A DNA stretch of 64,000 bases from Ilumatobacteraceae bacterium (GCA_031370825.1 JANMRB010000157.1:14556-78555), one strand, 5' to 3'; numbered from the stretch's first letter, positions 1 through 55,414 are shown. Translations and numbers: made by a program. The notes: a model not told the origin generated them from the letters alone.

Positions 1-319
1 ACGTCAATCTGTCGTCGCGTTGCTGCGCTGCGCTGACGGCCAGCACCATCGTCAGGGAGCTCATCAGCAGTACGAAGCTGGAAACCGAGGTCAGCGGAAT
101 GTCCCAGAGCTGTGCCGGGCCCGGTGAGCCGGTGTGCCGGCCGCGGTACAGCATGTAGGTCGAGATCAAGCCGCCGAACAGCAGGCATTCGCTGCCGAGG
201 AACAGCCACATCGCCAGCTTGTTGTTGCTCAGGCCGGTCGACGTGACCATGTGCGCGCCGTGATCATCGTGAGCGGGATGGTCGTCGGCCGGAACCTCGA
301 CGAGAGTTGCCTCAGACAC
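1..319 (-). CDS. ctaE: cytochrome c oxidase subunit III, N-terminal part (3' end lies beyond the window start)
   Basis: Hand translation of the minus strand from GTG at 319-317 gives VSEATLVEVPADDHPAHDDHGAHMVTSTGLSNNKLAMWLFLGSECLLFGGLISTYMLYRGRHTG... NNKLxMWLFLxSE..LFG is the conserved start of HCO subunit III. The GTG overlaps the ctaD stop by 8 nt. It is absent from the ORF track because there is no stop in the window. Confidence 0.7.
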   Translation of the reverse strand, partial: MSEATLVEVPADDHPAHDDHGAHMVTSTGLSNNKLAMWLFLGSECLLFGGLISTYMLYRGRHTGSPGPAQLWDIPLTSVSSFVLLMSSLTMVLAVSAAQQRDDRLT

Positions 320-2321
320 TGGCAAGCTCCTTTGTGGGTTCGCCGCCCTGAGGCGGCGGGTCGTAGTCACTCTCGTCGGCAACCGAAGGCTCGAGGGCCC
401 ACGCGAAGATTCCCATCAACAGGATTGCCCCGCCGATAACGGTCAGCACGAGCGAGAAGATGACCCCGTAGGCCATGATCGGCAGAGCAATGGCCACAAT
501 CATCGGCCAGTACGACGCAGAAGGCATGTGGATGTTCTTGTCGGCGTTGGCCTCTTGCTCGGCGTGCAGCTCTTCTGCCGTTCGCACCTTGACAAGACGG
601 GGCCCTGCGTCGGTGTCGACCTCTTCGTATTTGAGGTGGAAGTACTCGTCGAGAGCGTGCACATGGGGAATGACGTCGAAGTTGTGCACCTTGGGCGGGT
701 TGTTTGTCAGCCATTCGAGGCTGCGCGCATCCCACGGGTCAAGCGGCGCTTTAGCGCCCTTTCGGGTCGTATGCCAGACGTTGACCAGGAACACGAAGAT
801 GCTGGCGGCGAGAATGAACGAGCCGACGGTGGCGACGGTGTTCCAGAAGTGGAGGTTGAAGAACCCCTCGCCTGTCAGCTTCTCGGGGTACACCACCATG
901 CGCCGTGGCTGGCCCTGCAGACCGAGGATGTGCATAGGGCCGAACGTCAGGTTCATGCCGATGACCATCAGCCAGAAGTTCCACTTGCCGAGCCTCTCGT
1001 CGAGCATCTTGCCGAAGATCTTCGGCCACCAGTAGTAGAAGCCGGAGAAGATCCCGAACACCGCACCGCCGAACAGCACGTAGTGGAAGTGGGCGACGAT
1101 GTAGTACGTGTCGGTCTGTTGGGTGTCTGATGGTGACACGGAGTGGGTGACACCCGAGAGTCCACCGATGGTGAACTCGACGATCAGACCGATGGCGAAC
1201 AACATCGCCGTGGTGAAACGGATCTTGCCGCCCCACATGGTGAGCGTCCAGTTGACGATCTTCACCCCGGTGGGGATGGCGATCAACATCGTGCTGACCG
1301 AGAACACCGCAACGCTGACGGGGCCGAGGCCGCTGGCGAACATGTGGTGAGCCCACACCCCCCATCCGATGAAGCCGATGGCTGCGCCGGAGAACACGAC
1401 GAACTTGTATCCGAACAACGGCTTGCGGCTGAACACCGGCAGCACCTCGCTGACGATGCCGAAACTGGGTAAGACGAGGATGTACACCTCGGGATGGCCG
1501 AATATCCAGAACAGGTGTTGCCAGAGCAACGGGTCTGCGCCCGCATCGACGTTGAAGAACTTGGCTCCGAAGACCCGCTGGAACATCAGCAGGAACAGGG
1601 CAACGGTGATGACCGGGATGGCGAACACCAGTAGGAACTGCACCACGAGGATCATCCACGTGAAGATGGGCATCTTCATCAGGGTCATGCCAGGAGCGCG
1701 CATGTTGAGGATCGTGACGATGAGGTTGAGCGCACCCGTCAACGAAGCGATACCGGTGATCTGCAGACCGAGCGACCAGAAGTCGACGCCATGCGTCGGT
1801 GAGAAGAGCGCGTTTGCATTGGGCTGGTACATGAACCAGCCGCCATCTGCGGCCCCACCGAGGAACCACGACGTGTTGAGGAAGATGCCGCCGAAGAGGA
1901 AGCACCAGAAGCCGAAGGCGTTGAGCCGGGGGAAGGCGACGTCGCGCGCGCCGATCTGCAGTGGCACGAAGTAGTTGGCCCACCCTGCCGCCATCGGCAT
2001 CACGAACAAGAAGATCACGGTCGTGGCATGCATGGTGAACATCTGGTTGTAGAGGCTGGCGCTGAGCACGGTGTTGTCGGGGGCGGCGAGCTGCGTGCGA
2101 ATCAGCAGCGCCTCGATGCCGCCGACGAGGAAGAAGAACACCGCCGCAGTGCCGTACATGATGCCGATCTTCTTGTGGTCGACGGTGAACAGCCACGACC
2201 GCCAGCCCGTGGTCGTGACCGGGCGGCGGAACACGCCGTACGACGAGGCGGGAGTGACGAATTGCGGCAGGTCGCCGCCCGGTAGGGCTGGAACTGTTGA
2301 GGGTCGTTCGATGATGGCCAT
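312..2321 (-). CDS. ctaD: cytochrome c oxidase subunit I (aa3/caa3 type) with a C-terminal two-helix extension
   Basis: 669-aa ORF. The N-terminus has TVDHKKIG. All six metal-ligand His are visible: FTMHATTVIF, WIFGHPEVYILVLP, WAHHMF, VAHFHYVLFGG. About 110 extra C-terminal residues contain HMPSASYWPMIVAIALPIMAYGVIF... Confidence 0.95.
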   Translation of the reverse strand: MAIIERPSTVPALPGGDLPQFVTPASSYGVFRRPVTTTGWRSWLFTVDHKKIGIMYGTAAVFFFLVGGIEALLIRTQLAAPDNTVLSASLYNQMFTMHATTVIFLFVMPMAAGWANYFVPLQIGARDVAFPRLNAFGFWCFLFGGIFLNTSWFLGGAADGGWFMYQPNANALFSPTHGVDFWSLGLQITGIASLTGALNLIVTILNMRAPGMTLMKMPIFTWMILVVQFLLVFAIPVITVALFLLMFQRVFGAKFFNVDAGADPLLWQHLFWIFGHPEVYILVLPSFGIVSEVLPVFSRKPLFGYKFVVFSGAAIGFIGWGVWAHHMFASGLGPVSVAVFSVSTMLIAIPTGVKIVNWTLTMWGGKIRFTTAMLFAIGLIVEFTIGGLSGVTHSVSPSDTQQTDTYYIVAHFHYVLFGGAVFGIFSGFYYWWPKIFGKMLDERLGKWNFWLMVIGMNLTFGPMHILGLQGQPRRMVVYPEKLTGEGFFNLHFWNTVATVGSFILAASIFVFLVNVWHTTRKGAKAPLDPWDARSLEWLTNNPPKVHNFDVIPHVHALDEYFHLKYEEVDTDAGPRLVKVRTAEELHAEQEANADKNIHMPSASYWPMIVAIALPIMAYGVIFSLVLTVIGGAILLMGIFAWALEPSVADESDYDPPPQGGEPTKELASV

Positions 2322-2333
2322 CTGGGATCAGCC

Positions 2334-3584
2334 TTACTTCCGCTCGAGCAGGTAGGCGACGATCTGATCGATCTGATCGTCGGTGAGTTTCAGGTTTGGC
2401 ATGCCACGGTACTTCCCGCCGTTCTCGTCCTTCTGCGCCTCGCTGGAGTACATCGGCTTCTTCGCCGGCGCATTGCGAACCCACTCACGCAGTTCGGCTT
2501 CGTTGAAACAGTCCGGTGTGACGCCCTTCAGGTACAACGCGCCGAACTCCTCAGGGCTGGCATCATGCAGCGCCTTGCGGCAGGAATCGGTCAGCAGGTC
2601 GAACGTTGCTCCGGCGAACGTGGTGCGAGACATCAGGTGGGTCAGGTTCGGCGCGTTTCCGGCAATGACATAGAGATCGGGGAAGGCGATGACGGGCTTC
2701 GTGGAGTTGGTCCCGTCTGGGTTCTCGTCCATCAAACCGTTGACCTGATGACAACGAGAGCACTGCGTGCGGAACACGTCTTCGCCCTGCAGCGCAAGCG
2801 GATCGGTCGGCTTCGCAGCGGGTTCCAACTGGTTGGCGACCCACGTCGAGAAGTCGGCGGAGTTGAGGCCGACCGCGTCCATCCGCATCCGGGCATGGCT
2901 GAGACCGCAGAACTCCGTGCATTGACCCGCAAAGATGCCGGGATGATCCGCTTCCATGCGCAGCGGATGGATTCGACCGGGCACTGCGTCGCGCTTGCCG
3001 TTGAGCTTGGGGATCCAGAAGGAGTGGATGACGTCGTTGCTGGTGATGCGCAGCAGCACGTGGACTTTGGTCGGCAAGACCAGCTCGCCACTGGTCACGA
3101 GTGGCTCGGCGATTTCGACGCCACCGCAGTTCTGCACCGGGTACTCGTATTCCCACCACCACTGTTGACCCGTGACGTTGACGACACACTGCGTGTCGCT
3201 GGTCTTGGCAAGCGAGAACACCGTGCTGACCGTGGGAATCCCGACGGCGATGAGGATCACAGCGGGAAGGATCGTCAGACCGATCTCGAGGGTTGGATTG
3301 CCGTGGGTCTGCCGCGGCATCTCTTGCCCGTGATCACGGAACCGGATGACGACGTAGATGATCGCACCGAACACGATGAGGCCGACGATCCCGGCGACCA
3401 GAAATACCGGCCACTGCAGGTTCTGAATCTTCTGAGCGTTCTCGCCTTCCGGCTTGAACGTGTCTTGTGGGGCGTTACGGGCGCAGCCGCCGAGCACTGC
3501 TGCCGCAGCGATCACGGCCATGACAACGGCCGATCGCTGTTTCACACGTCGCACGGTACTCACTGGTTGTTCGACTCCGCTCAT
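2334..3584 (-). CDS. ctaC: cytochrome c oxidase subunit II fused to a cytochrome c domain (caa3-type)
   Basis: 416-aa ORF with a lipoprotein-like signal (AAVLGGCA) and two TM helices. CuA site: VIHSFWIP ... CTEFCGLSHARM. C-terminal haem c motif: CSRCH. Confidence 0.9.
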   Translation of the reverse strand: MSGVEQPVSTVRRVKQRSAVVMAVIAAAAVLGGCARNAPQDTFKPEGENAQKIQNLQWPVFLVAGIVGLIVFGAIIYVVIRFRDHGQEMPRQTHGNPTLEIGLTILPAVILIAVGIPTVSTVFSLAKTSDTQCVVNVTGQQWWWEYEYPVQNCGGVEIAEPLVTSGELVLPTKVHVLLRITSNDVIHSFWIPKLNGKRDAVPGRIHPLRMEADHPGIFAGQCTEFCGLSHARMRMDAVGLNSADFSTWVANQLEPAAKPTDPLALQGEDVFRTQCSRCHQVNGLMDENPDGTNSTKPVIAFPDLYVIAGNAPNLTHLMSRTTFAGATFDLLTDSCRKALHDASPEEFGALYLKGVTPDCFNEAELREWVRNAPAKKPMYSSEAQKDENGGKYRGMPNLKLTDDQIDQIVAYLLERK

Positions 3585-3586
3585 CG

Positions 3587-4750
3587 CTATGGGACCATGA
3601 TTTCGATGGGCTCCAAGCCTTCTACACCCGGCGCGGTGAAGGTGTACGGCTGGGAGCTGGCGATCGATGGCTTGGGCAGCACGAAGGAGAGGAACTGGCT
3701 GCCGCCGGGATGCACGAGGGTCGTGCAGTTCTTCGGTCGCTCCTTGACCACGGTTCCGTTGATGTCCTTCTCGAACTCGCCCATGTTGATGGTCAGCCGC
3801 CGAGGCACCGAATCGCGATTCTTGTAGATCACGTTGACTACGTTGCCGCGCGAGACTGTGACCGGGTCCTGATTTCCAGGGATCCCCAGCTCATGGGCAG
3901 TGAGCTTGCCGTTTTCCAAGGTCACGGTGATCCCGATCGCAGCCTTGGACGCAACGGCCTGCGATCCCTTGTCGTCGATCTCGGCCTGTTCGCCAGGGCC
4001 CTCTTCGGCGAGGTCACACACGGCCCCGTTGTCGGATCCTGTCGTCGGGTGAGCCGGGATCGTGCGCTGGCCATCGACCGCCATCACTGCGCCGGTGCTG
4101 ACGAGACCGAGCATTGCTATCGCGCAAACGCCGGTGATGACGCCCTTCTTGAGGCTCGGTCTCGATGCGAACAGGAACCCGCCGAACAGGACCAGCGCAC
4201 CGGCGATGATGAACACGACCGGACCGCCGCTCTTGTCGATCCACAACATGATGCGTGAGAACGAGTAGATGATCGCAGCGAGCCCTGCTGCGGCAAGCAC
4301 AGGAAACTCGATGGGGTGAAGCATTCGCTTGCGGAGGTCGGCGTTGTATGCAGCGTCTGTCGAAGCCCGTTCGCTCCAGCCGTGCACCATCCACTCGACG
4401 GCAGCCGCCAGCAACAGCACGACACCGGCCTTGAACACGATCGGCTTCGAGACTGCACCGACGGCGATTGCTCCCACGGCAACTGCGCAGAGAGCCGGCC
4501 ACATGCTGCGTTCGACCGGAGGTTGCGCTGCCGGGGACGCAGTCGTGGCGTCGTCGGACATCGCCGACACGTTGCCGTCGCGGACCATGTAGTTGACGTA
4601 GAACAGGAAAGCGAACACGAGCGCCGCGGTGAGCAAACCCATGACGCCGAGCCAACCGTCGGCACCTCCCTTGGACAGGCCGAAGATGACTGCAGCGACG
4701 ACCGCCAACACGGTGGCCCCGAGGAAGAGTTTGGATCCTGTGGTGAACAT
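3587..4750 (-). CDS. hypothetical polytopic membrane protein (about 7 TM) with a C-terminal beta-rich, cupredoxin-like soluble domain
   Basis: 387-aa ORF with a GAGGGG Shine-Dalgarno just upstream. Seven hydrophobic segments are followed by about 150 aa (ITVTLENGKLTAHELG..VTVSRGNVVNVIYKNRDSVPRRLTINM..NCTTLVHPGGSQFLSF). Its stop lies 2 nt from the ctaC start. The function is not recognised. Confidence 0.65.
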   Translation of the reverse strand: MFTTGSKLFLGATVLAVVAAVIFGLSKGGADGWLGVMGLLTAALVFAFLFYVNYMVRDGNVSAMSDDATTASPAAQPPVERSMWPALCAVAVGAIAVGAVSKPIVFKAGVVLLLAAAVEWMVHGWSERASTDAAYNADLRKRMLHPIEFPVLAAAGLAAIIYSFSRIMLWIDKSGGPVVFIIAGALVLFGGFLFASRPSLKKGVITGVCAIAMLGLVSTGAVMAVDGQRTIPAHPTTGSDNGAVCDLAEEGPGEQAEIDDKGSQAVASKAAIGITVTLENGKLTAHELGIPGNQDPVTVSRGNVVNVIYKNRDSVPRRLTINMGEFEKDINGTVVKERPKNCTTLVHPGGSQFLSFVLPKPSIASSQPYTFTAPGVEGLEPIEIMVP

Positions 4751-4763
4751 TCGTGCCCCTCGC

Positions 4764-5354
4764 CTACTTCGTCACGTACACCACGAACCACAGTGCGAAG
4801 AACAACGCACCGAGGAAGTACCAATACAGAGCATGCGCTGACACGATCTCGCGATCCGACGTTCGACCACCCATGTAGCGAAACGCCGTGATCACGCTGA
4901 AGCCGATACCGATGATCAACAGCAACATGAACGTGCCGGTGATCGCATAGAACATCGAGTTGTACGCCGTCGGCGTCTTGCCGGCGATCGGCAGCTTCAT
5001 GCGGACGTAGATGAACGCCTGTGCATTGACGATCGCTGCGCCGATCACCGCGACGAGCGTCAGTCCGAGCGCCGCCTGGCTGCGGGCGTCGCGCCGTGCA
5101 GCATGCACCGTCCACTGGGCGAAGACGAAGATGAGGACGAACGCCAACAACATCGTGTTGGCCGGCACCATCGGGACCTTGGTGCCCTTGGGAATCCAGC
5201 GACCGCCTGGAACGTCGATGGCGTTGGTTCGAAAGCGCATCCACAGCGCCAACATCGCCCCGATCAGCGAGCCGGCGGCCACGCACCCCAGAGCGGTGCC
5301 GACGAAGACCTGGCGTCGCGGGGCCGGCGGCGCAGCAGAGGGCAGAGCGAGCAT
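4764..5354 (-). CDS. haem-copper oxidase subunit III-like membrane protein
   Basis: The ORF track gives 237 aa. The likely start is the internal ATG at 5354 (MLALPSAAPP...), which overlaps the upstream stop as TGATG. It has five hydrophobic helices and a C-terminus HALYWYFLGALFFALWFVVYVTK typical of subunit III. Confidence 0.7.
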   Translation of the reverse strand: MLALPSAAPPAPRRQVFVGTALGCVAAGSLIGAMLALWMRFRTNAIDVPGGRWIPKGTKVPMVPANTMLLAFVLIFVFAQWTVHAARRDARSQAALGLTLVAVIGAAIVNAQAFIYVRMKLPIAGKTPTAYNSMFYAITGTFMLLLIIGIGFSVITAFRYMGGRTSDREIVSAHALYWYFLGALFFALWFVVYVTK

Positions 5355-6973
5355 CAGCCATCCCTCCGTGGCTTCAAGTCGAGCAGCGGTTCGGCGGACG
5401 CCACGGTGTGCACATCGCCGAAGTTTGCATATGGCGCGGGTGACGACGTAGCCCACTCGAGCGTCTGACCGTCCCACGGGTCGTCACCCGAAGCGTCTCC
5501 CCGGCTGAACGAGCGCGCCGCGAGTGCGACGAAGGCGACGACCGTGACGAGCATCAGCACATGACCGGCGGCCGCAAGACCGTTCCACAGGTTCTGCGGG
5601 CCTGAGTAGTCGAACTCGGTGGCGTTGCCGGGCTGCTTCGCAAATCCGGCGATGAGGTAGGGCAACGAGGCGAGCACGGTGGCGATGAAGCCCAGCGCGG
5701 CGAGTGGCATGACGAGCTTGTCGGGGATCAGTCGACCCCACAGCTTGGGACCCCAATAGGTGATGGCTCCGAGGCCGCTGAGCACAGCGCCGTAGACGAT
5801 GTAGACCCAGACACCTTCCTCGAACACCGTTCCTGCTAGTTGGGCGTCGCCTACCTGGTAGATGGCGTTGGCGAGGATGCCGACGAAGACCATCAGCGCT
5901 CCGAGCAGGCCGAACAGCAGCGGCGCAATGATCCGAGGCCTGGCGCCGCGCATCGAGAGTGCGCCGAGAGAGACGACGATGAAACCGCCGAGAATCGGCA
6001 ACAGGTTGAAGAGCGCATATGGCACGATGTCGCTGAGCCACGGGCCCAAGGACGCGTGGCTGATGTCGCGAGACAGTGCTACAGGTTGTTGCAGCACGGC
6101 ACCCAAGGCGGCGCTGATGCCGACCAGAGCGATGCCGGTGAACACGACGCCCCGCATCGCGAGCTTGCGTCCACTGGCCACGGCAATCACTTCGGCGGCG
6201 AACCCGAACACTGGAACCGCGTAGACGAACGTTGCCGGCTGGGTGAACCCGAAACCGATCCAATCATTGATCGCCTGATTCCCTCCGAAGCCGACGCGGC
6301 TGTAGCGGTAGTCGAGGTAGGTGAAGATCGAGGCGCCCACGACCGCGGGAAGCACCAGCAGCAGGCCGAGCGAGCCAACGAGCGCTGACCAGCTGAAGAC
6401 CGGAACGCGTCGCATGTTCATTCCCGGAGCCCTGGTCGTGAGCACGGAGGTTGCCAGCGAACCTGCAGCTGCTGCCAAACCGAGCAGCAGAACGATGTGG
6501 CTGACCAGGAACAGGCCGACGAACTTGGGATCGCCACCACCGGGGCCGCCGTTGGCTGCGATCGAGATCACTACCAGTACAGCGCCGACGAACCACGTCC
6601 AGAATCCGGCGGCCGCGAGCCGGGGGAAGGTCAACGACCGCGCCCCGAGCTGAAGCGGGACGATGGCGATGGCGACACCGAGCAACAGCGGCACCAAGAC
6701 GATGCACGTGAGGCCGATCCTGTAGAGCGAGAACAGCTGCGGAATCGCGTTGGAATCGAGCATCGAACCCTTGGCGTCGATGCGTTCGATCCCGAGCAGC
6801 GCTGCTATCACGATCAGGCCGAGCAGGCCGACGAGCGAGACGGCGATGAACAGTCGGCCGATGCGTTTGTGATCGGTCGTCGTCAACCAATCGCCCACCG
6901 ACGACACGCGAGCGCTGGGCGATGCTGTAACGCCCCCTGCGGCGCCGGCGGCGTGCGTATCGATGGTGGTCAT
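5354..6973 (-). CDS. haem-copper oxidase subunit I paralogue lacking all metal-ligand histidines
   Basis: 539-aa ORF with clear CoxI N- and C-terminal signatures: DWLTTTDHKRIGRLFI, VPLQLGARSLTFPRLAAAGFW, TYWGPKLWG, DPWDGQTLEWATSSPAPYANFGDV. The segments aligned to the CtaD ligand motifs contain no His: LYRIGLTCIVLVP, TQPATFVYAVPVFG, GAVLQQPV, EEGVWVYIVYGAV. Confidence 0.8.
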   Translation of the reverse strand: MTTIDTHAAGAAGGVTASPSARVSSVGDWLTTTDHKRIGRLFIAVSLVGLLGLIVIAALLGIERIDAKGSMLDSNAIPQLFSLYRIGLTCIVLVPLLLGVAIAIVPLQLGARSLTFPRLAAAGFWTWFVGAVLVVISIAANGGPGGGDPKFVGLFLVSHIVLLLGLAAAAGSLATSVLTTRAPGMNMRRVPVFSWSALVGSLGLLLVLPAVVGASIFTYLDYRYSRVGFGGNQAINDWIGFGFTQPATFVYAVPVFGFAAEVIAVASGRKLAMRGVVFTGIALVGISAALGAVLQQPVALSRDISHASLGPWLSDIVPYALFNLLPILGGFIVVSLGALSMRGARPRIIAPLLFGLLGALMVFVGILANAIYQVGDAQLAGTVFEEGVWVYIVYGAVLSGLGAITYWGPKLWGRLIPDKLVMPLAALGFIATVLASLPYLIAGFAKQPGNATEFDYSGPQNLWNGLAAAGHVLMLVTVVAFVALAARSFSRGDASGDDPWDGQTLEWATSSPAPYANFGDVHTVASAEPLLDLKPRRDG

Positions 6974-6995
6974 AGGCAGCGAACTCTTTTCGTTT

Positions 6996-7017
6996 CGGGC
7001 GCGCTGGCGCGCGCCCG
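6996..7017 (-). other. GC-rich stem-loop between ctaB and the oxidase operon
   Basis: CGGGCGCGC-tggc-GCGCGCCCG forms a perfect 9-bp stem. It lies 79 nt downstream of the ctaB stop and 23 nt upstream of the subunit-I-like start. There is no U-tract on the minus-strand transcript, so it is not a canonical intrinsic terminator. Confidence 0.3.
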
Positions 7018-7095
7018 ATTCAGTGCTCGATCGGTTACGGACGATTGGGTTACACCTGCGAGATTACCCATAGGCCGGCGCGCGGGCGGAAATCC

Positions 7096-8058
7096 TCAGA
7101 CGCCCGAGCGCACCAGAATGTCGATCGTCATCGCGGCGAACAACAACGTGACGTAGGTGATGCTGAACCCGAACACGCGCATCGACCGTTGCGGCGTCGG
7201 GTTTTTGCCGAGATCGACCGTGCTCCACAGGAACAGGCCTCCGGCGATGACGGCGGTGGCTATGTAGATCACGCCGAGATGGGCCACCGGGATCAGCACC
7301 AGTGTGAACGCGACCATCAGCACGGTGTACCCCACCATCTTGCGCACCGTGACCTCGGCCGACTTCACCGCCGGCAACATCGGGACATTCGCTGCCCGGT
7401 AATCGTCGGCGTAGCGAATGGCCAGAGCCCAGAAGTGTGGGGGCGTCCACAGGAACATCACGACGAACAGCACCACAGGTGACCACGCGACGTCGTTTCG
7501 CACCGCGGCCCACCCGACCAGCACGGGCACAGCACCCGCTGCACCCCCGATGACGATGTTCTGGGTGCTCGTTCGCTTCAACCACAACGTGTAGACGAAG
7601 ACGTAGAACAGCGTCGCCGACAGCGCCAGGACAGCCGACAACAGGTTGGCACCAGCCCACAGCACACCGAACGCGATGGCTTCCAGGGCGAGCGCGAAGA
7701 TCAGGGCATTGCGCGGTTGGATGAGGCCAGTGACGAGGGGTCGCCCCTGCGTGCGCGGCATCAGCTTGTCGATGTCGCGGTCGACGACCATGTTGATGGC
7801 ATTGGCGCCGCCGGCAGCCAGGGTTCCGCCGACCAGAGTGATCGCAACCAGCGACCAGGACGGCCAACCACGCTGCGCAAGCACCATGGTGGGCACCGTC
7901 GTGATCAGCAGCAGCTCGATGATCCGCGGCTTGGTCAGTGCGACGTAACCGCCGAAGGCGGTGGTCGGCGTGCGACGAGCGCCGTGGGCTATGCCGTCTC
8001 GACCGAGCCGAGAAGGGGCGAGCCGCGACGGCACAAGAGGACGAGCACCGACGGCCAT
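7096..8058 (-). CDS. ctaB: protohaem IX farnesyltransferase (haem O synthase)
   Basis: [23 protein letters not shown] plus a polytopic UbiA-type body. The ORF track extends to 8214, but that would overlap clpS. I chose the ATG at 8058 (MAVGARPL...). The start is uncertain. Confidence 0.85.
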
Positions 8059-8110
8059 TGCACCATGGTACGGGCGCGACAAGACGCCGGCCAAGCGGCA
8101 GAATGGGAAC

Positions 8111-8407
8111 ATGGCCTCCATGCCCGCTCCTGTCGAAGTCGGCGAGATCGATGTCGACGACGAAATCGTGCCCGACCGGCCATGGATCGTGCTGGTTTGG
8201 AACGACCCGATCAATCTGATGAGCTACGTCACGTTCGTGTTTCAGAAGGTCTTCGGCTACAGCCTCGAAAAAGCCACGTCGTTGATGCTCGACGTGCACG
8301 AGAAGGGCCGCGCGGTGGTGTCGAGCGGTGCCCGAGAGAAGGCTGAGATCGACGTGTTCAGATTGCACGAGCACGGCTTGTGGGCCACGATGCAGCAAGA
8401 CGACTGA
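8111..8407 (+). CDS. clpS: ATP-dependent Clp protease adaptor ClpS
   Basis: [47 protein letters not shown] is the ClpS core. I chose the internal ATG at 8111 ([10 protein letters not shown]), which gives about 98 aa. Confidence 0.9.
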
Positions 8408-8904
8408 TGGCTCGCAAACGTGCCTTCATCCCACCGATCGAACGCGTTCGAGGCGGCTTTGCGTTCAACATCGGCGAGGATGAACGACAGCTGGTCTCGA
8501 GATTGCTCACCGAGCTCAGCCAACTCCTGATGGGTGAATCCGGTGACCCGCGGTTGGTCCGCATCTTCCCGCCTGCGTACCACCTTGCCGACGATGCCGA
8601 GGCCGACGCCGAGTACCAGCGACTGATGCGTGAAGACCTCGTGGCCTCGAGGCTGTCGGGAATCACCACGGTCACCGAAGCCCTGCAAGCACCGGGACCC
8701 GTCGGCGAAGAGGCGATGATCGCATTCGTCCAGGCCATCAACGGCTTGCGTCTCGTACTCGGGACGATGCTGGACGTCGACGAGGATCACGACCCCGACG
8801 ACATCGACGACACCGACCCGCTCGTCGGCGAGCATCACCTCTACAACTTCTTGAGCTGGCTGCTCGATTGGGCGGTACGCGCGTTGGGCGAGCCGATCAA
8901 GTAG
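8407..8904 (+). CDS. DUF2017-type protein, the usual ClpS partner in actinobacteria
   Basis: The start ATG overlaps the clpS TGA as TGATG. The protein is acidic, about 165 aa ([30 protein letters not shown]...). The position after clpS is the conserved actinobacterial arrangement. Confidence 0.65.
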   Translation: MARKRAFIPPIERVRGGFAFNIGEDERQLVSRLLTELSQLLMGESGDPRLVRIFPPAYHLADDAEADAEYQRLMREDLVASRLSGITTVTEALQAPGPVGEEAMIAFVQAINGLRLVLGTMLDVDEDHDPDDIDDTDPLVGEHHLYNFLSWLLDWAVRALGEPIK

Positions 8905-8910
8905 CCCGAT

Positions 8911-9726
8911 TCAAGTAGCAGGGAACATGAAACAACCAACGGTGCCCGCACCGGCATACACACCGACGCTCGGCCCGATTCGGTATCGAACGACTTCGAC
9001 CACGTTTGCCGATTTGCCGAGTGCATCGGCGAGGACCTGCGTGAACTGTTGGACGGTTCGATCGCTCTGACCCACTGCGACGTTCAGCCGAGGGCCCCAT
9101 CCGAGGGCAGTGGTCGCCATCGCCTTGACGGCCTCGACGGGGGTGCTGGCGTTGGCTACCACGTCGAGCCGCCCCGCGTGAATGGCCATGACCGCGACAC
9201 CGGTGGTTGTGCTGACCTTGCCGGAACGGATGAACTCCGACTGTCCCACCACCATCACAGCACCGATGTTCGGGGCGAGCGACTCGGCAACTTGAACCGC
9301 TTCGTTGAGCTTGGCTCCGCGAGCCACTGCCTCGCCCGCTGCCCAGACGCAGCAGCTCACGCCGAACCCCGCTGTGCCCGAGTCCACCAGTCGAACCGGT
9401 ACCGGTAGCGAACGTGCAGCCAAGCGCGCCGAGTTGAGCGTTCCCGACGCGGTTGCCGTGACATGGATCGACAGGATCTCGTCGCAGCCGCGATGCAACA
9501 GCGACTCGTATGCAGCAGCAAACTGGCCAGGGCTCGGTTGGCTGGTGCTGACAGCCGGCGAGGGTTCCGCGCTCAACATCGCGTAAAACCGATCGGCGTC
9601 GAGATCGACACCTTCGAGGTAATCGTGCTCGTCGACAGTCACCGTCACCGGGACCACCTCGACGTCATACCGTTCGATGAGCATGGCGGGCAACTGCGAG
9701 TTGGAGTCGGTACAGATGCCGATCAT
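8911..9726 (-). CDS. DegV family fatty-acid-binding protein
   Basis: MIGICTDSNSQLPAMLIERYDVEVVPVTVTVDEHDYLEGVDLDADRFY is a typical DegV N-terminus. Length is 271 aa. Confidence 0.85.
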   Translation of the reverse strand: MIGICTDSNSQLPAMLIERYDVEVVPVTVTVDEHDYLEGVDLDADRFYAMLSAEPSPAVSTSQPSPGQFAAAYESLLHRGCDEILSIHVTATASGTLNSARLAARSLPVPVRLVDSGTAGFGVSCCVWAAGEAVARGAKLNEAVQVAESLAPNIGAVMVVGQSEFIRSGKVSTTTGVAVMAIHAGRLDVVANASTPVEAVKAMATTALGWGPRLNVAVGQSDRTVQQFTQVLADALGKSANVVEVVRYRIGPSVGVYAGAGTVGCFMFPAT

Positions 9727-10358: not shown

Positions 10359-10431
10359 GCCCCCATCGTCTAGTGGCCTAGGACACCACCCTTTCAAGGT
10401 GGCGGCACGGGTTCGAATCCCGTTGGGGGTG
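10359..10431 (+). tRNA. tRNA-Glu (anticodon UUC)
   Basis: Hand-folded cloverleaf. Acceptor GCCCCCA/TGGGGGT has a G1-U72 pair, which as I recall also occurs in mycobacterial tRNA-Glu. Anticodon arm CCACC-CTTTCAA-GGTGG. T arm ACGGG-TTCGAAT-CCCGT. CCA is not encoded. Confidence 0.9.
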
Positions 10432-10453
10432 CTGGTCAGATTGGTTTCAATCT

Positions 10454-10527
10454 GGTCCCGTGGTGAAGCTGGAGTTCACGCCGGCCTGTCAAGCCGGAGG
10501 TCGCGGGTTCGAGTCCCGTCGGGACCG
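10454..10527 (+). tRNA. tRNA-Asp (anticodon GUC)
   Basis: Acceptor GGTCCCG/CGGGACC. The anticodon loop CTGTCAA is flanked by GCCGG/CCGGA... T arm GCGGG-TTCGAGT-CCCGT. Confidence 0.9.
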
Positions 10528-10565
10528 CTCATAATCAGTAATCAAGTAGGTCGGTTTCAAAATAC

Positions 10566-10638
10566 GGTCGAGTAGCTCAGTCGGCAGAGCACACGCCTGA
10601 AAAGCGTGGGGTCACCGGATCGACGCCGGTCTCGACCA
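10566..10638 (+). tRNA. tRNA-Phe (anticodon GAA) with an unusual A54 in the T-loop
   Basis: Acceptor GGTCGAG/CTCGACC. D arm GCTC-AGTCGGCA-GAGC. Anticodon arm CACGC-CTGAAAA-GCGTG. T arm ACCGG-ATCGACG-CCGGT. Confidence 0.85.
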
Positions 10639-10770
10639 CAGCACGGCTAACAAGCGCAGGCATCGCAGTGGGCACATACGGCCCACCACGGTGCCTGCGT
10701 CGCGTGTGCGCCAGTATCCTCGCCGCGTGGCAATCAGCCCGACGGCCAGCGTTCCAAGCGCGCGACGATC

Positions 10771-17246: not shown

Positions 17247-17307
17247 TCCGCCTGTAGTATCGAATCGGCAAACGTCGCCGAAAACATAGGCCATCGAGGT
17301 AGGCGGC

Positions 17308-20300
17308 ATGGGACAGTTGCAGAAGGTGAGTTGGCGAACGGTTGGCTATGCCGCGCTCGGCACCGTCGTCGCTGCCGCCTCTGTCGTCGCCATCATCAAC
17401 AGCGACGGTGTGCGCCCGACGTCGCTCACCTCCAACGCAGCCACCAGATGGCTGGTGGACCAACTCAACAACCAAGTCGTTCTCGTTGACGGGTTGGCCG
17501 GCCACGTTGTCGCCAAGGTCACGCTCGATACCGAGACAGGATCCAACGACGACGTGGCGGTTCAGGGCCCGGGCGGCGCTTTCCTGGTTGCCCCTTCACA
17601 GGGCTCGGTTCGCACGATCTCCACAGCGAAGCTGCAACTCGGCACGGCGCAGACCGTCGGGTTGTTGTCGGAAGCCGGCGCCAAGTTCCGGGTCGGCACC
17701 AGCGGTCTGACGATCCTCAGTCCGCACACGAAGGAAGCCACTGTCGTTGCGGTGGACGATGTCACCCAGCCGATGGCTGTGCCGGAATCGGACTCCGCGT
17801 ATCTGGCCGCGGACGGCAGCATGTGGCTGCTCTCGAAATCACAAGCGACCCACGTCAACGTCGACGACTCGCGCACGACCGTGCTGCTCCGCAGCAGTTC
17901 GAACGGCAAGACGACCACGATCGGTTCGCGTGCAGTCACGTTCGACGCCGCTGATCAAGTGATGCATTGGCTCGGCGGTAGCAATGTCGCTGTCACTTCC
18001 CTCCCGAACCCCAGCGAAGCCGTCATGCAGGAGCCGGGCGACGATGCTCCCTGCGTATGGATAGGTTCCGGCGACACGTTGTTGTGCGTCGGCAAGACGG
18101 GCATTGATCACACGCTCACCATTCGCGGCATGGGCATCGGTTCGACCGACAGGCTGGCGATCGCCGGGCCTGCTGCAGTCGTCGTGCGAAACAGCAACAG
18201 GATCGACCGGATCGATCTCGAGGGCGAAAAGATGGCCAATGATCAGGCCCCGACAACTCCTTCGTCGACGCCGTCAATAACCGCATCGGGAAACCTGATC
18301 TGGCTCGACGAGCCCTCGGGCACGCACGCGTGGGTGGTCCACCGGTTCGGGATCAACCCGATCACGAAAGATGACGTGAACGCGCTGACCTTCGATGCAC
18401 AGGGCCAGGTTCAGGACGCAGGCAATGGTGGAGACGCGCCGTCGCCGGCCGGAGGCAACGGAGGAGCCGACGAGACGAGCCATCTCGACCTCAATGGTCG
18501 CGAGGATCCACCAACCGCCGTCGACGACTCGGTCACGGCCCGCGCAGACACAACCATCACGATTCCTGTGACAGGCAATGACTGGGATCCCGATGGGGAC
18601 CCGATTGCGGTCGATTCGGCCGGTATCGGCAAGCAAGCGACCCACGGCACCGTTGACGTGCTCAACGGGACATCAGTGTCCTACAAGCCGGACCCTGGCT
18701 ACAGCGGATTGGACTCGTTCGAATACACCATTGTCGACCCGTCCGGCGAGGGCGACACGGCAACCGTCAACGTGCAGTTGTTCCCGCCGGGCAGTCCCAA
18801 CCAGCCTCCGATTGCCCGAGCCGACAAGGGATTCAAGACGAGGATCGGCCGAGCGATAACCATCGACGTCCTGGCCAACGACATCGACCCCGAACGCGAC
18901 GTCCTGAGGATCGCGACGTTCACCCCGAACGGCTCGGCCACGATCAGCGAGACGAAGGGTCCGACAGGACTGCCGGCGCTGCGTTATCAGCCGCCGTCCA
19001 CGGCGGGCATCTACACGTTCACCTACCAGGCCGCCGATCCGCAAGGAGGCACCAGTCCGAAGACGCAAGTGACGGTCGAGGTGTCCGGCGCCGACGCCGC
19101 CAACGGTCCGCCGGTGGCCAACCCTGATGCTATTCGGCTTCCCGTCGGTGTGCCCGTCCCCCTCGATGTGAAGGCCAACGACACTGACCCCGATGGCGAC
19201 GAGTTGACCATCTCACTCTCGAGCATCGGAACCGACGCGATCGATGTGTCGCTGCAGGCTCAGCAGTTGAGCATCACCGTGCGACCAGGCGCAAAGGATC
19301 GTTCGCTGGTCTTCTACACCTTGTCCGATGGAATCAAGGAGCACGACAAGAGGGGCGAGGTTCTCGTGCTGAGAATCGGCGACACGGCCGAGAACCGAGC
19401 GCCGGTGGCCAACCCTGACGCCGAGCGGGTCGTGATCGGTGAGTCGGTCAAGATCCCGGTGACCGCCAACGACATCGATCCAGACCACGACATCATCCGC
19501 CTGCTGACGGCCGGCACACCGACGGGAGGGGCCGGAACCACAATCGTCGAGGGCAACGCCGTCCGATTCACGCCGAACCTCCCCGACATCAAAGAACCCA
19601 CCCCGGTCACGTTCACGTACACCATCACGGACGGAAACGGCCATGAGGCCACCGGTAATGTCACGGTCACCGTGCTGCTCGAAGCGTTGCCACGCGCTCC
19701 GTTCGCGCGCGACGACTTCGCCGATACCGAAGTCGACAAACCCGTCAACATCGACGTGTTGGCCAACGACGGCGACCCGTCGGGTGGCGGGCAACCGAGC
19801 CTGACCGGCAACCCGACATGTCCAAATGGCGGAACCGCCTCGAGAACACCGGATGAGCGGATCACGTATGTTCCCCCCTCTGGTCAACCCGGCACTTTCC
19901 GTTGCAAGTACACGGTCATCAACCGCCAAGGCCTGGTTGCCGAGGCGTCCATCATCGTCACGGTCAATCCAGCGCTACCTGGCAATCACGACCCGCAGAT
20001 AAATGCGACCAACACTCTGCCGACCGTCGACCTCGGCACGACCCTGTCAATCTTCGCCGCGGACATCGCCACCGACGCCGACAACGACCACCTGGTCTTC
20101 GTCTCGGTCGACAACCCGCTCAACGGCAAGGCCGAGATCAGACAGAACGGCGACAGCATCCTCTACACGGCACCGGCAATCGCCTCTGCCGAGAAGACCC
20201 CCACAGCAGTGAATGTCAGCTTCACGATCAGCGACGGCAACGACGGCAACGTCAGCGGCAGCGTTTCGGTCAAGATCAATGATCCCTCCGCGACGACCAG

Positions 20301-21999
20301 CACAACTCCCACCGGCACGGCGCCGGCGACGCATGACATCGCCAAGAACGCCACGGTCGGCGACTTGGTCCAGGTCGATGTCTTGTTCGAGCTGCGCGAA
20401 TCGAACCCGTCGACGCTGACGGTCGGTCCGGTGAACCTCGATTCTGGCCCCGGATCTGCCCTGCAGGTCAGCCCCAGCGGCGTCGTCAGCGTGATAGTGA
20501 CCGGGCCGGGAAACGTGGTGATCGGCTACACCGTGACCAACAGCGACAACCTTCTCAGCAGCACAGGCAAGATCAAGATCACCGTCAACGAAGCGCAGAC
20601 AAGCGGCAGCCCGCCGGTCGCCAACGACGACGAGATGATCGTGGCCAGCGGCGGGTCCGGCAGGATCGATCTTCTCGCAAACGACAGTGGCTACTCCGAT
20701 CCCGGCGACGTGTTGGACATCAAGTTGATCCTGCGACCGCCCGCCGACTTCGGATCGGTCACTCTCATCGGGAGTCAGCTCACGTTCGTCGCCGCTGGCA
20801 ACACCTCGGGAGACACCAACCTGACATATGAGCTGAGCGACGGCTCCGGCGTTTCGGTAGGCCACGTCAAGATCACGCTCAAGGCATGTGTGGACAGTCC
20901 GCCCGCGACAACCGGGGCACAGCTTTTCACGCCCTATCAGACGCCGATCAGCATCGACCTGAACCAGTACGTCGTGTCGGGCAGCATCCGTAGCGTCATC
21001 GGCGCCGGCCTGACTGGGGCGACCGGTGTCTACACACCGCCTGCCGGCTTCAACGGCGTAGAAACCGTCACCTACACCGTTGCCAACGGATGTGGTCAAA
21101 CTGTCGAGGGCACCGTGACCATCGACGTCAACCGAATCCCAGTCGGGGACGACATCACGCGCGCCCTGGCACATGGTGACCAACTTTTGTTGCATGTCAA
21201 CGAGCTCGCTTCCGACGACGAACCGCTGAAGATCACGGTCCTCAATGGCAATCCGGGTTGGGTCAGCTGGGACGAGACCACCGTCAGCGCTACGCCGCCT
21301 GCCAGCGCCAGCGGTGACTACACGTTCACCGCCACAGTCGTGGATCCGGGAGGATTGACGGCGACAGCCTCGATCACGCTGAGGGTCACCAACCTTGCGC
21401 CGACGGCCTTTGCCGACCAGTTCACGACCGACGATTCAACGTTTTCATTCGACCCCACGGAAAATGACTTCGATCCCGAAGGTGGCCTGCTGTGCGTACA
21501 GCCAGTGAACGTCGATCCTCCAAACGGCAGTGCCATCGTCGGGCCGAACCCCGCGCCCACGTGCCTGAAATCCATCACCATCTCCTTGGTCCACGGCGTC
21601 ACGCACTTGACGTACACGGTCCGCGACGAGGGCGGGCTTACGGCGAGCTCGACCATCACGATCACATCGAACCGGCCGCCCACAGTTCCCGACGCAACGG
21701 GAGCGACCAATGGATTCCCGAGCGTGGACATCCCACTACTACCGACCGAGCCCGATGGCGACGACGTTTCGGTCACCTGCAACACACCGGTAGATGGGGA
21801 CGGGCCCAACGCGAACTTCGACGTCGGGATTTCCCCCAATCTCAATGCCGGAGACAACCCGAAAATACATCCGAGGTACAAGCTCAGCGTGTCGGTCCAA
21901 CAGCCGTTCCAACCGGGGGTTGACGATCAGTTCCACTGCACGGTGACGGACAGCTTCGGCAGGGCGGCAGTCGCGACTGTCACCATCACGAACAGTTAG
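17308..21999 (+). CDS. giant N-terminally membrane-anchored surface protein with tandem cadherin-like repeats
   Basis: 1563-aa ORF with SD GAGGTAGG upstream. It has a single N-terminal TM (VGYAALGTVVAAASVVAII) and a non-repeat region of about 330 aa. About 12 repeats follow, carrying PPVANPDA..V.IPV.ANDxDPDGD motifs. No LPXTG motif or C-terminal anchor. Confidence 0.9.
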   Translation: MGQLQKVSWRTVGYAALGTVVAAASVVAIINSDGVRPTSLTSNAATRWLVDQLNNQVVLVDGLAGHVVAKVTLDTETGSNDDVAVQGPGGAFLVAPSQGSVRTISTAKLQLGTAQTVGLLSEAGAKFRVGTSGLTILSPHTKEATVVAVDDVTQPMAVPESDSAYLAADGSMWLLSKSQATHVNVDDSRTTVLLRSSSNGKTTTIGSRAVTFDAADQVMHWLGGSNVAVTSLPNPSEAVMQEPGDDAPCVWIGSGDTLLCVGKTGIDHTLTIRGMGIGSTDRLAIAGPAAVVVRNSNRIDRIDLEGEKMANDQAPTTPSSTPSITASGNLIWLDEPSGTHAWVVHRFGINPITKDDVNALTFDAQGQVQDAGNGGDAPSPAGGNGGADETSHLDLNGREDPPTAVDDSVTARADTTITIPVTGNDWDPDGDPIAVDSAGIGKQATHGTVDVLNGTSVSYKPDPGYSGLDSFEYTIVDPSGEGDTATVNVQLFPPGSPNQPPIARADKGFKTRIGRAITIDVLANDIDPERDVLRIATFTPNGSATISETKGPTGLPALRYQPPSTAGIYTFTYQAADPQGGTSPKTQVTVEVSGADAANGPPVANPDAIRLPVGVPVPLDVKANDTDPDGDELTISLSSIGTDAIDVSLQAQQLSITVRPGAKDRSLVFYTLSDGIKEHDKRGEVLVLRIGDTAENRAPVANPDAERVVIGESVKIPVTANDIDPDHDIIRLLTAGTPTGGAGTTIVEGNAVRFTPNLPDIKEPTPVTFTYTITDGNGHEATGNVTVTVLLEALPRAPFARDDFADTEVDKPVNIDVLANDGDPSGGGQPSLTGNPTCPNGGTASRTPDERITYVPPSGQPGTFRCKYTVINRQGLVAEASIIVTVNPALPGNHDPQINATNTLPTVDLGTTLSIFAADIATDADNDHLVFVSVDNPLNGKAEIRQNGDSILYTAPAIASAEKTPTAVNVSFTISDGNDGNVSGSVSVKINDPSATTSTTPTGTAPATHDIAKNATVGDLVQVDVLFELRESNPSTLTVGPVNLDSGPGSALQVSPSGVVSVIVTGPGNVVIGYTVTNSDNLLSSTGKIKITVNEAQTSGSPPVANDDEMIVASGGSGRIDLLANDSGYSDPGDVLDIKLILRPPADFGSVTLIGSQLTFVAAGNTSGDTNLTYELSDGSGVSVGHVKITLKACVDSPPATTGAQLFTPYQTPISIDLNQYVVSGSIRSVIGAGLTGATGVYTPPAGFNGVETVTYTVANGCGQTVEGTVTIDVNRIPVGDDITRALAHGDQLLLHVNELASDDEPLKITVLNGNPGWVSWDETTVSATPPASASGDYTFTATVVDPGGLTATASITLRVTNLAPTAFADQFTTDDSTFSFDPTENDFDPEGGLLCVQPVNVDPPNGSAIVGPNPAPTCLKSITISLVHGVTHLTYTVRDEGGLTASSTITITSNRPPTVPDATGATNGFPSVDIPLLPTEPDGDDVSVTCNTPVDGDGPNANFDVGISPNLNAGDNPKIHPRYKLSVSVQQPFQPGVDDQFHCTVTDSFGRAAVATVTITNS
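18508..21996 (+). repeat. about 12 tandem 95-100-aa cadherin-like / Big-type repeats (coding)
   Basis: Repeat starts were read from the protein: PPTAVDDSV, NQPPIARADK, NGPPVANPDA, NRAPVANPDA, PRAPFARDDF, NHDPQINATN, TAPATHDIAK, GSPPVANDDE, DSPPATTGAQ, NRIPVGDDIT, NLAPTAFADQ, NRPPTVPDAT. The acidic NDxDPDGD motif is clear in the early repeats and decays in the later ones. Confidence 0.75.
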
Positions 22000-26195: not shown

Positions 26196-26374
26196 GGCCG
26201 GTGATGCTATCGCTCATCTATCCTGGCCGGGGGTACCGCCACTTTGCGAAAGTCAGAACTTGACGTTGTCTTGAATTTTGAGGTTATCTCGTGGACCAGT
26301 CATACCGATAACAAGATCATGAGGCCCGTGTACGTTCTCGAGCCCCTCGGACACCTACCGTCGCGCCCGCACCC

Positions 26375-53297: not shown

Positions 53298-53669
53298 CCC
53301 GCCGAAGACCGATACTTCCTGGTGAAGCGGCACGAGGTCACGCCGTGGCGGACGGCGATCCGCCTCGGCAAGTGCCGAAGTAGCGACCTGTTTCAGATCG
53401 GCATTCTCAGCGCGGAGCTGCTCGTTCTCCGCTTCGAGTTGCATCACGCGGCGGATGCCCTCGAGGTTCATGCCCGACGCGGCAAGCTCGCTGATTCGGC
53501 GCAGGCATTCGATGTCGACGTCGCTGTATCGACGATTGCCCCCTTGGGTCCGTGCAGGCTGCACGAGCCCACGTCGTTCGTAGATGCGCAGGGTCTGTGG
53601 ATGCATGCCGGCCAGCTCGGCGGCGACCGAGATTACGTAGACCGCGTGATGTTGGGATCGCATGTTCAT
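53274..53669 (-). CDS. hspR: MerR-family heat-shock repressor HspR
   Basis: VYVISVAAELAGMHPQTLRIYERRGLVQPARTQGGNRRYSDVDIECL. It is the last gene of the dnaK operon, and its ATG overlaps the dnaJ TGA. Confidence 0.9.
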   Translation of the reverse strand: MNMRSQHHAVYVISVAAELAGMHPQTLRIYERRGLVQPARTQGGNRRYSDVDIECLRRISELAASGMNLEGIRRVMQLEAENEQLRAENADLKQVATSALAEADRRPPRRDLVPLHQEVSVFGGSRLGRSS

Positions 53670-54790: not shown

Positions 54791-54856
54791 AGATCATCAC
54801 CTCCCTCCGTTCTCGTTCACTTGCGATTCTCGATCACAGACCTCAGTGGGCCCGCT

Positions 54857-55410
54857 TCAGCCGCGGACCTTGACCATCGCCGGCCGCAGGACCTTGCCAT
54901 TCCATGTGTAACCGGATCGCAAGACCTCGCTGACAACGGGCTCCCCCTCGCCCGGCTCGTGCAGGACGGCATCGGCAAGGTGTGGATCGAATGGCTGCTC
55001 GTGCAGGTTCATCGACTCGAGGCCCTGCTTCTTCAACTCGCTGAGCATCAGGTTGAACAACGGCTCGATCTCGGCTGGATGCTGCAAGAACGCAGCCTCA
55101 CAAGCGTCGAGCACCGGCAGCAGAGCCTCGGCCAGCCGCCCAGTAGCGCGGTCGATGTCGTCGTTGCGCTGCGTAGCCAGTCGTCGCCGATAGTTCTCGT
55201 AATCAGCAGCAATCCGCTGAGCGCGCGCCATCCACTCGTCGCGGTCAGACGTGAGAACCTCGACCTCGGTCGGCTCTGTCAGTTCAGCCTCATCCTCAGA
55301 AACGTCAGACAATTCGCCGACGTAGTCGTCGGAGGGTGGCGCCGTAGGCGAAGTGGGAGGATCTTCTCCGGTGACAGGACCCTCCGACGACGGGCCGGAG
55401 GTGATGTCAC

Positions 55411-55414
<4 letters not shown>
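54857..55414 (-). CDS. grpE: nucleotide exchange factor GrpE
   Basis: 185 aa with an acidic N-terminus. [15 protein letters not shown] and FDPHLADAV motifs. The ATG overlaps the dnaK stop. Confidence 0.9.

Follow-up and report, generated by a model that had tools for sequence, protein, structure and literature searches.

In a 64,000-nucleotide stretch of DNA from an Ilumatobacteraceae bacterium (GCA_031370825.1, JANMRB010000157.1:14556-78555; hereafter the window), three genes stand between ctaB, which encodes haem O synthase, and the structural genes ctaC, ctaD and ctaE of a caa3-type cytochrome c oxidase. They encode a paralogue of haem-copper oxidase (HCO) subunit I without a single histidine at a metal-ligand position (I'), a paralogue of the CtaE-type subunit III (III'), and a protein with seven helices and a C-terminal beta domain (X). 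I', III' and probably the N-terminal part of X are redox-dead paralogues of the membrane core of an oxidase, and about even credence is given to the proposal that the three proteins together serve the caa3 oxidase encoded beside them as a structural partner or adaptor without catalytic activity. The parts belong to known superfamilies (COX1, COX3, CtaF-like proteins and the cupredoxin fold). The first-pass annotation of the window knew of no ligand-less HCO subunit I in an operon with a functional oxidase, and no published description of a ligand-less subunit I was found in the 8 million full texts searched, which omit most subscription journals.

The relationship of I' to subunit I extends over its full length. 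I' scores 102.8 bits against the COX1 family PF00115 (gathering score 34.8; E 2.5e-29; model positions 1-433) and shares 27% identity with the neighbouring CtaD in BLASTP (E 2e-45). Its best matches in the PDB are actinobacterial CtaD chains, and its full-length similarity amounts to 118-147 bits with Acidimicrobiia CtaD proteins and 122 bits with CtaD of C. glutamicum. Every motif by which this 539-aa protein had initially been recognized as a CoxI homologue is present, namely TTDHKRIG at residue 32, VPLQLGARSLTFPRL at 105, YWGPKLWG at 406 and DPWDGQTLEWATS at 498.

None of the six ligand columns of I' holds a histidine, a result on which BLASTP, HMMER against PDB CtaD chains and MAFFT all agree. 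The segment FTMHATT of the true CtaD reads FSLYRIG in I', GHPEVY reads TQPATF, WAHHMF reads AVLQQP and VAHFHY reads GVWVYI. The protein contains exactly six histidines (residues 7, 35, 159, 306, 471 and 522) and one cysteine. Thus, the initial claims that all six ligands present in the neighbouring CtaD are missing from I', and that none of its six histidines occupies a ligand position, stand after profile alignment, which placed no histidine in these columns. The loss extends beyond the metal ligands: the cross-link tyrosine is replaced (F249), the D-channel glutamate (E of HPEVY) corresponds to A247 and the D-entry aspartate to S113, the K-path lysine has become a hydrophobic residue, and the arginine pair for the haem propionates is also gone. 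E261 aligns with the residue that follows the K-path serine, at the cytoplasmic end of helix 6. A window-type I' therefore cannot reduce O2, nor can it pump protons by the canonical mechanism.

Despite these losses, I' is predicted to keep the full 12-helix fold of subunit I. The AlphaFold2 (AF2) model, built with 99 family sequences, reaches a predicted local distance difference test score (pLDDT) of 94.1 and a predicted TM-score (pTM) of 0.93, and superposes on actinobacterial CtaD with TM-scores of 0.83-0.84 in Foldseek (7q21_D of C. glutamicum and 6hwh_Q of M. smegmatis), a structural comparison of the kind proposed at the outset. I' nevertheless scores below all NCBIfam cut-offs for CtaD, CyoB and QoxB, with 173.7 bits against TIGR02891 (cut-off 670.75) and 153.1 against NF050116 (cut-off 880). 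Judged by curated score, cross-link tyrosine and D- and K-pathway residues, its sequence places it outside the A-family oxygen reductases; by fold and homology it is a member of the haem-copper superfamily, and by the six histidines it is not.

III' shows the same kind of kinship to subunit III. It matches PF00510 with 31.3 bits (gathering score 23.8) and the actinobacterial aa3_CtaE model NF050119 with 44.9 bits (cut-off 190; E 1.4e-11), finds subunit III chains in the PDB with E 3.5e-7, and is 25% identical (E 7e-10) to the true CtaE of another Acidimicrobiia locus (L019). In terms of canonical subunit III, the homology spans helices 3-7; the FHGxH motif found in true CtaE proteins is lost. 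The gene had been recognized as CoxIII-like from the start, and this holds; its length has to be corrected, since the product has 196 aa (4764-5354) and is not the 237-aa open reading frame (ORF) first assigned.

The N-terminal domain of X is likely homologous to the actinobacterial oxidase subunit CtaF, as several sequence comparisons suggest, while X as a whole is a larger and different protein. Against PF12270 (Cyt_c_ox_IV), X of the window reaches E 0.014 and 15.9 bits, below the gathering score of 26.9, which is exceeded by the orthologue in locus L040 (29.9 bits); the orthologues in L019 and L073 give E 0.002-0.003, and in several orthologues the model is matched along its whole length. 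In line with these results, a profile of 25 X orthologues retrieves only CtaF chains from the PDB, which take the four best places (9wcx_m, 8hcr_H, 7q21_F and 6adq_H; E 6e-4 to 1e-2), and hhalign gives a probability of 92.9% for a relationship between the N-terminal part of X and the two CtaF-like helices at the C-terminus of the true CtaD. The segment that follows, residues 126-226, has no match in Pfam, NCBIfam or the PDB, and its comparison by hhalign with CtaC, the CtaD tail and III' was negative. Its charged cytoplasmic stretch is strongly conserved, and E119, W120, R140, R142, P146, E148, P150, S165 and R166 of X are invariant across the 25 orthologues, down to 29% identity.

The C-terminal domain of X had been described as cupredoxin-like without a CuA site, and both halves of that description are borne out. 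The AF2 model of X was interpreted for this domain only, since the membrane part is poorly modelled (pLDDT 56 for the whole model and ~75-84 for the C-terminal beta domain alone). All top PDB matches of the domain in Foldseek are cupredoxin domains (laccases, nitrite reductase and auracyanin; E 2e-5). The canonical copper-binding His/Cys/His/Met positions are not conserved in the orthologue alignment, and the CuA motif C-x-E-x-C-G-x2-H-x2-M is absent from X. Two cysteines, C245 and C342, are invariant and probably form an extracytoplasmic disulfide. X has no Pfam or NCBIfam match to subunit II (PF00116, PF02790). A derivation of its middle and C-terminal parts from a degenerate CtaC was rejected (hhalign probability against CtaC <2%), and so was an assignment to the seven-helix family Caa3_CtaG (PF09678), to which X gives no match despite its seven helices and which is represented by a separate gene downstream in relatives. 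The trio had been taken to mirror subunits I, III and II as a set. This is correct for I' and III'; X has a CtaF-like N-terminus and no detectable homology to CtaC. The mycobacterial CtaE and CtaF are jointly equivalent to canonical subunit III and form the main contact with complex III (PMC8361435), and the module accordingly mirrors subunit I plus a split subunit III, with extra parts.

Ligand loss is graded across the family. Ligand classes were scored in 334 full-length members, close relatives included. The CuB histidine triad occurs in none of the 334, and 191 have no histidine at any ligand column. The bis-His pair of the low-spin haem (the helix 2 histidine and the second histidine of helix 10) is kept in 85 members, a few of which also keep the high-spin haem histidine. 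With about a quarter of the sampled relatives keeping this pair, the original description of the proteins as cofactor-free shadows applies to the clade of the window, with 0/6 ligands, and does not apply to the family at large. Two of the CuB histidines are replaced fairly consistently by glutamine (74/104 and 51/104). An arginine beside the helix 2 histidine column is found in 166 of the 191 ligand-free members and in none of the 85 that keep the pair; in 142 of the 191 it is accompanied by an acidic residue at the start of helix 10. The corresponding residues in the window protein are R85 and E385/E386, a charged pair that we infer to fill the former haem a pocket. An aspartate or glutamate at the position of E261 is nearly universal (329/334). 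A single haem-propionate arginine is common in the pair-keeping relatives, in a loop that aligns poorly.

The state of I' is matched by that of X at the loci at hand: a ligand-free I' is paired with a long X carrying the cupredoxin-like domain in 69 of 69 loci, and a histidine-retaining I' with a short X of 262-284 aa in seven of seven. The cupredoxin-like domain is thus absent from the divergent short-X branch, which makes up the more divergent half of the family. This branch is represented by loci L081-L088 (e.g., L084 10001-13115 and L086 1445-4468), with low-spin haem histidines and a short X; one member, P0294, also has the high-spin haem histidine. The divergent L081-L088 branch may be a single-haem intermediate form.

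The conservation pattern of I' is also unlike that of a catalytic subunit. Averaged over 99 diverse members, conservation is 0.59 in the cytoplasmic loops and 0.57 in the cytoplasmic thirds of the helices, against 0.39 in the outer loops and 0.46 in the outer thirds of the helices. The cofactors of real subunit I are located in the outer part. Correspondingly, the motifs common to I' and real subunit I are all cytoplasmic (TTDHK, PLQxGA..FPR, RAPGM, YWxPK and DPW..LEW..SPP..NF), and the highly conserved mid-membrane residues of the I' family are all Gly, Pro, Ala, Leu, Trp or Phe. This cytoplasmic bias, together with the apolar character of the mid-membrane residues, points to structural constraint and speaks against both a conserved path for ions and a new site for a cofactor.

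The module is under purifying selection. Pairwise ratios of nonsynonymous to synonymous substitution rates (dN/dS) against the closest relatives (dS 0.4-0.9) are 0.09-0.15 for I', 0.13-0.17 for III' and 0.11-0.19 for X, compared with 0.08-0.13 for ctaC and 0.06-0.11 for ctaD. The module genes, at 0.09-0.19 overall, are therefore similar to ctaC and far from the value near 1 that had been named as the mark of gene decay. The module genes evolve faster than ctaD, with 52-60% versus 72-80% identity at the same phylogenetic depth.

The genes of the module are closely tied to those of the oxidase (Table 1). Coordinates refer to the whole window, whose G+C content is 62-65%, and all genes of the oxidase block lie on the minus strand in the 5'-3' order ctaB, I', III', X, ctaC, ctaD, ctaE. 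Direct reading of the junctions confirmed that I' and III' are joined by a TGATG sequence, in which the ATG of III' overlaps the stop of I' by 1 nt, and that the three genes run straight into ctaC-ctaD-ctaE. The gap between III' and X measures 13 nt and carries a GAGGGG Shine-Dalgarno sequence; those from X to ctaC and from ctaC to ctaD measure 2 and 12 nt, respectively, and ctaD and ctaE overlap, so that the distances inside the block range from -1 to 13 nt. The sole sizeable gap precedes I'. Consensus scans found no promoter in the block, terminator-like sites over positions 1-9000 were at chance level (7 found, 5.9 expected), and Rfam gave no match over the block, its sole hits in the window being three tRNAs elsewhere.

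Table 1. Genes, protein parts and spacer of the oxidase block, in window coordinates
Feature	Position	Strand	Evidence
ctaB, haem O synthase; first gene of the conserved block	7096..8214	-	NCBIfam NF003349, 398.8 bits; TIGR01473, 324 bits; PF01040 (UbiA) match
ctaB-I' spacer, 122 nt	6974..7095	-	direct reading
I', 539 aa, 12-helix paralogue of haem-copper oxidase subunit I	5354..6973	-	PF00115, 102.8 bits; AF2 and Foldseek
III', 196 aa, 5-helix paralogue of CtaE-type subunit III	4764..5354	-	PF00510, PDB, NF050119
X, 387 aa, seven helices and C-terminal beta domain	3587..4750	-	sequence reading
X residues 1-125, four CtaF-like (Cyt_c_ox_IV) helices with conserved SMWP motif	4376..4750	-	PF12270, PDB profile, hhalign
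X residues 126-226, conserved cytoplasmic segment WSERAS.D..YN..R.R.LHP.EFP and helices 5-7	4073..4375	-	25 orthologues
X residues 271-387, extracytoplasmic all-beta domain of cupredoxin-like fold	3590..3940	-	AF2, Foldseek
ctaC, caa3-type subunit II	2334..3584	-	TIGR02866, 186.9 bits, above cut-off; PF00116, PF02790, PF00034
ctaD, true subunit I, 669 aa, with C-terminal two-helix CtaF-like extension	312..2321	-	TIGR02891, 697.7 bits, above cut-off; PF00115, 528.5 bits
ctaE, true subunit III, partial; runs off the window start	1..319	-	sequence and translation; GTG start overlaps ctaD stop

The enzyme encoded downstream of the module is a normal caa3 oxidase, as indicated by the six histidines of its CtaD (MHATT at 97, GHPEVY at 275, AHHMF at 324 and AHFHY at 410), by the score of this protein above the TIGR02891 cut-off, and by the CuA and haem c motifs of CtaC. 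CtaC consists of a lipobox signal, two transmembrane helices, a CuA cupredoxin domain and a fused cytochrome c domain; its CuA motif CTEFCGLSHARM and haem c motif CSRCH identify it as a caa3-type subunit II. Residues 577-645 of CtaD correspond to the latter half of actinobacterial CtaF (PF12270, 28 bits), so that the real oxidase, too, contains a CtaF-like part, here as an extension of subunit I, in addition to the Bacillus-type COX4_pro ctaF found downstream in relatives. The caa3 operon had been called complete. The order ctaC-ctaD-ctaE is as described, and ctaE is only partly in the window (1-319); full-length copies, followed by COX4_pro ctaF and Caa3_CtaG, are found in loci L019, L084 and L088. 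At the other end of the block, the match of ctaB to its family sets in near residue 82-90, and the true start therefore probably lies downstream of the first codon of the ORF.

The module is widespread in one bacterial class. A scan of one genome per GTDB species gave 283 relatives, of which the best 80 were taken for locus analysis; every one of these belongs to the Acidimicrobiia (Ilumatobacteraceae, Acidimicrobiaceae and unclassified lineages). Wherever flanks are available in these loci, the order is ctaB-I'-III'-X-ctaC-ctaD-ctaE, so that the synteny survey suggested initially finds the module adjoining ctaCDE in the same arrangement throughout. The order recurs in six more divergent contigs, with relatives down to 32% identity, where it extends to COX4_pro ctaF and Caa3_CtaG and is preceded by ctaA. 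ctaB lies directly upstream of I' in nearly all loci, except for contigs that start inside I' and for L024, where a ctaB match is found ~3.7 kb upstream. Reading frames are intact in all 86 recovered loci. An exhaustive search among 1.84 billion cluster representatives returned ~310 clusters (50% identity) at E <1e-30, and the named relatives are Acidimicrobiales. One relative labelled Jiangellaceae is not counted as a sign of a wider range, as its neighbourhood (ctaA-ClpS-DUF2017) is of the Acidimicrobiia type. In databases, the module proteins go by 'cbb3-type cytochrome c oxidase subunit I', 'cytochrome o ubiquinol oxidase subunit' or 'hypothetical'.

In one locus, L059 (8001-10211, plus strand), I' and III' are read as one frame of 736 aa that matches both COX1 and COX3 in Pfam, the stop having been lost through an extra base. 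This fusion was set aside as proof of an interaction between the two proteins: it hinges on a single base that L062 lacks, in a metagenome-assembled genome from long reads, and is weak evidence.

Known systems resemble the module in part. I' shares with actinobacterial aa3 CtaD (7q21_D, 6hwh_Q, 6adq_F) and with the CtaD of its own operon the 12-helix fold, full-length homology and the cytoplasmic motifs. It differs from them in having no ligands for haem a, haem a3 or CuB, no cross-link tyrosine, no D- or K-pathway residues and no haem-propionate arginine pair, as well as in an inverted conservation, with the cytoplasmic half conserved and the cofactor half variable. The split subunit III of the M. 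smegmatis and C. glutamicum III2IV2 supercomplexes, a five-helix CtaE plus CtaF, provides the closest parallel to the rest: III' matches CtaE, and the first four helices of X match CtaF over almost all of its length, with the S(W/M)WP motif in common. These module components are likewise encoded beside their subunit I partner, but this partner, I', is redox-dead, and X adds to CtaF three helices, a charged cytoplasmic segment and, in the clade of the window, a cupredoxin-like ectodomain. Copper-less cupredoxin domains on the outer face of an HCO-type core are found in CyoA, QoxA and gNOR, and the domain of X has likewise lost its copper ligands. Unlike those domains, however, it has no detectable sequence homology to any subunit II, is absent in part of the family, has laccase, nitrite reductase and auracyanin rather than CuA domains as its best matches, and sits behind a CtaF-like seven-helix protein instead of a two-helix anchor. 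Finally, eNOR, sNOR, gNOR and nNOR are divergent HCO families that were discovered in genomes and have altered active-site residues (PMC11214002). Their members are catalytic and retain both haems as well as a metal site, in which no more than one or two ligands differ, whereas the I' family has lost the whole binuclear centre and the clade of the window every ligand.

The module most likely goes back to an ancient duplication of A-family oxidase genes, in the Acidimicrobiia or the wider actinobacterial lineage. The binuclear centre was lost in all members, and the low-spin haem site next, in the branch of the window, where the helix 2 arginine and the acidic residues of helix 10 take the positions of the bis-His pair; the same branch also gained the copper-free cupredoxin-like ectodomain on X. 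Selection keeps the 12-helix fold, the Gly, Pro and Trp residues of helix packing and the cytoplasmic-side loops; within the membrane core it preserves neither a polar pathway nor a site for a cofactor. The three proteins would be translated from one transcript together with CtaC, CtaD and CtaE and would assemble into a cofactor-free subcomplex, which may serve either as a pseudo-dimer mate of the oxidase or as an adaptor whose CtaE/CtaF-like surface makes higher-order contacts, comparable to those of CtaE and CtaF with QcrB in mycobacterial III2IV2 supercomplexes. Several points weigh against this structural role, which is favoured at about even credence. That I', III' and X are produced, assemble with one another and touch CtaC, CtaD and CtaE is a prediction from the genes. 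The ligand-class counts, which include many close relatives, reflect few independent events. With a possible low-spin haem site in 85 of the 334 members, the ancestral role may have involved haem, and a purely structural role may not fit the whole family. The L059 fusion may be real, resembling the fused subunits I and III of Thermus caa3, or may be an assembly error.

The position of the module directly after ctaB, close to ctaA in relatives and some way upstream of Caa3_CtaG, would also suit an assembly factor, in which I', III' and X act as a template or chaperone that transiently holds haem O or A, CtaC or CtaE during biogenesis and stays outside the mature enzyme. The low-spin bis-His pair kept by a quarter of the sampled relatives agrees with such a role, as do the cytoplasmic loops shared with true CtaD, which the same biogenesis machinery could recognize. 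In the clade of the window, however, the former sites of I' hold no His, Cys or Met and contain an Arg/Glu pair instead, which makes haem handling improbable there; the tight translational coupling to structural genes suggests stoichiometric rather than catalytic amounts, and known assembly factors such as Surf1, CtaG and CtaA, being small or unrelated proteins, do not duplicate the whole core. An assembly role is hence considered unlikely. Less probable still is a neofunctionalized membrane device, i.e., an ion or proton channel, a transporter or a sensor, acting independently or regulating the oxidase. Residues R85, Q245, Q295, E385 and E386 in the former cofactor region are invariant among close relatives, the E261 position is acidic in 329 of 334 members, and X carries strongly conserved charged motifs, but the D-entry aspartate, the D-channel glutamate and the K-path lysine have all been replaced, no mid-membrane polar residue is conserved family-wide, and the covariation of the Arg/Glu pair with the loss of haem ligands suggests the filling of a pocket rather than a pathway. 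A related proposal, that the HCO scaffold was repurposed as a redox-independent device physically coupled to caa3, in which I', III' and X serve either as a conduit for protons or ions or as a conformational regulator, is considered rather improbable.

Variant HCO active sites do exist (PMC11214002), and by analogy with eNOR, sNOR and gNOR a still-catalytic enzyme with metals on non-canonical ligands could be imagined, for which the glutamines at two CuB columns (74/104 and 51/104) might be taken as a sign. This is very unlikely, given that six of six ligands are gone, rather than one or two, that the six histidines and one cysteine of I' all lie away from the sites, that the replacing residues vary across the family, that the haem-propionate arginine pair is lost, and that the real CtaC is the sole CuA or haem c partner. 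Decaying duplicates, i.e., functionless pseudogenes in the making, might be expected to lose every catalytic residue and to diverge as the module genes have done (52-60% identity, with ctaD at 72-80% at equal depth). Yet the dN/dS values of 0.09-0.19 place the module genes under purifying selection and already exclude decay, and the frames are intact and the synteny fixed in 86 of 86 loci, down to 32% identity, with Shine-Dalgarno sequences and coupled junctions retained and a very confident AF2 model of I'; this explanation is hardly conceivable.

Elsewhere in the window, a 271-aa ORF (8911-9726, minus strand) occupies the position of the DegV gene of relatives; the upstream neighbourhood common to the distant relatives L084 and L088 comprises DegV-like, G3P acyltransferase, ClpS, DUF2017 and ctaA genes. 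Three tRNA genes (Glu-TTC, Asp-GTC and Phe-GAA) are clustered at 10359-10639 on the plus strand. Two very long plus-strand ORFs, 17290-21999 (1569 aa) and 26312-30430 (1372 aa), have a gene-like G+C content at third codon positions, and a run of ORFs at 53666-57264 on the minus strand, the first with a typical DnaK N-terminus by eye, is probably a dnaK-grpE-dnaJ operon.

To our knowledge, all haem-copper oxidase superfamily members characterized so far are redox enzymes, and six histidines define them. That a large family has retained the fold while losing the chemistry shows that selection can act on this scaffold for a role other than catalysis. The current oxidase labels on the module genes inflate the number of terminal oxidases counted in metagenomic surveys of soil and freshwater Acidimicrobiia. 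Were the scaffold a repurposed device, the bis-His sister branch would represent an intermediate single-haem stage, and the family would provide the first HCO-derived protein with a non-redox function. The series from two haems and copper through one haem pair to none constitutes a natural experiment on how pockets are filled after cofactor loss. If the module is a fixed partner of caa3, it would give bacteria a clear example of a respiratory complex with pseudo-enzyme subunits, and would change how the oxidase of Acidimicrobiia is purified, modelled and counted.

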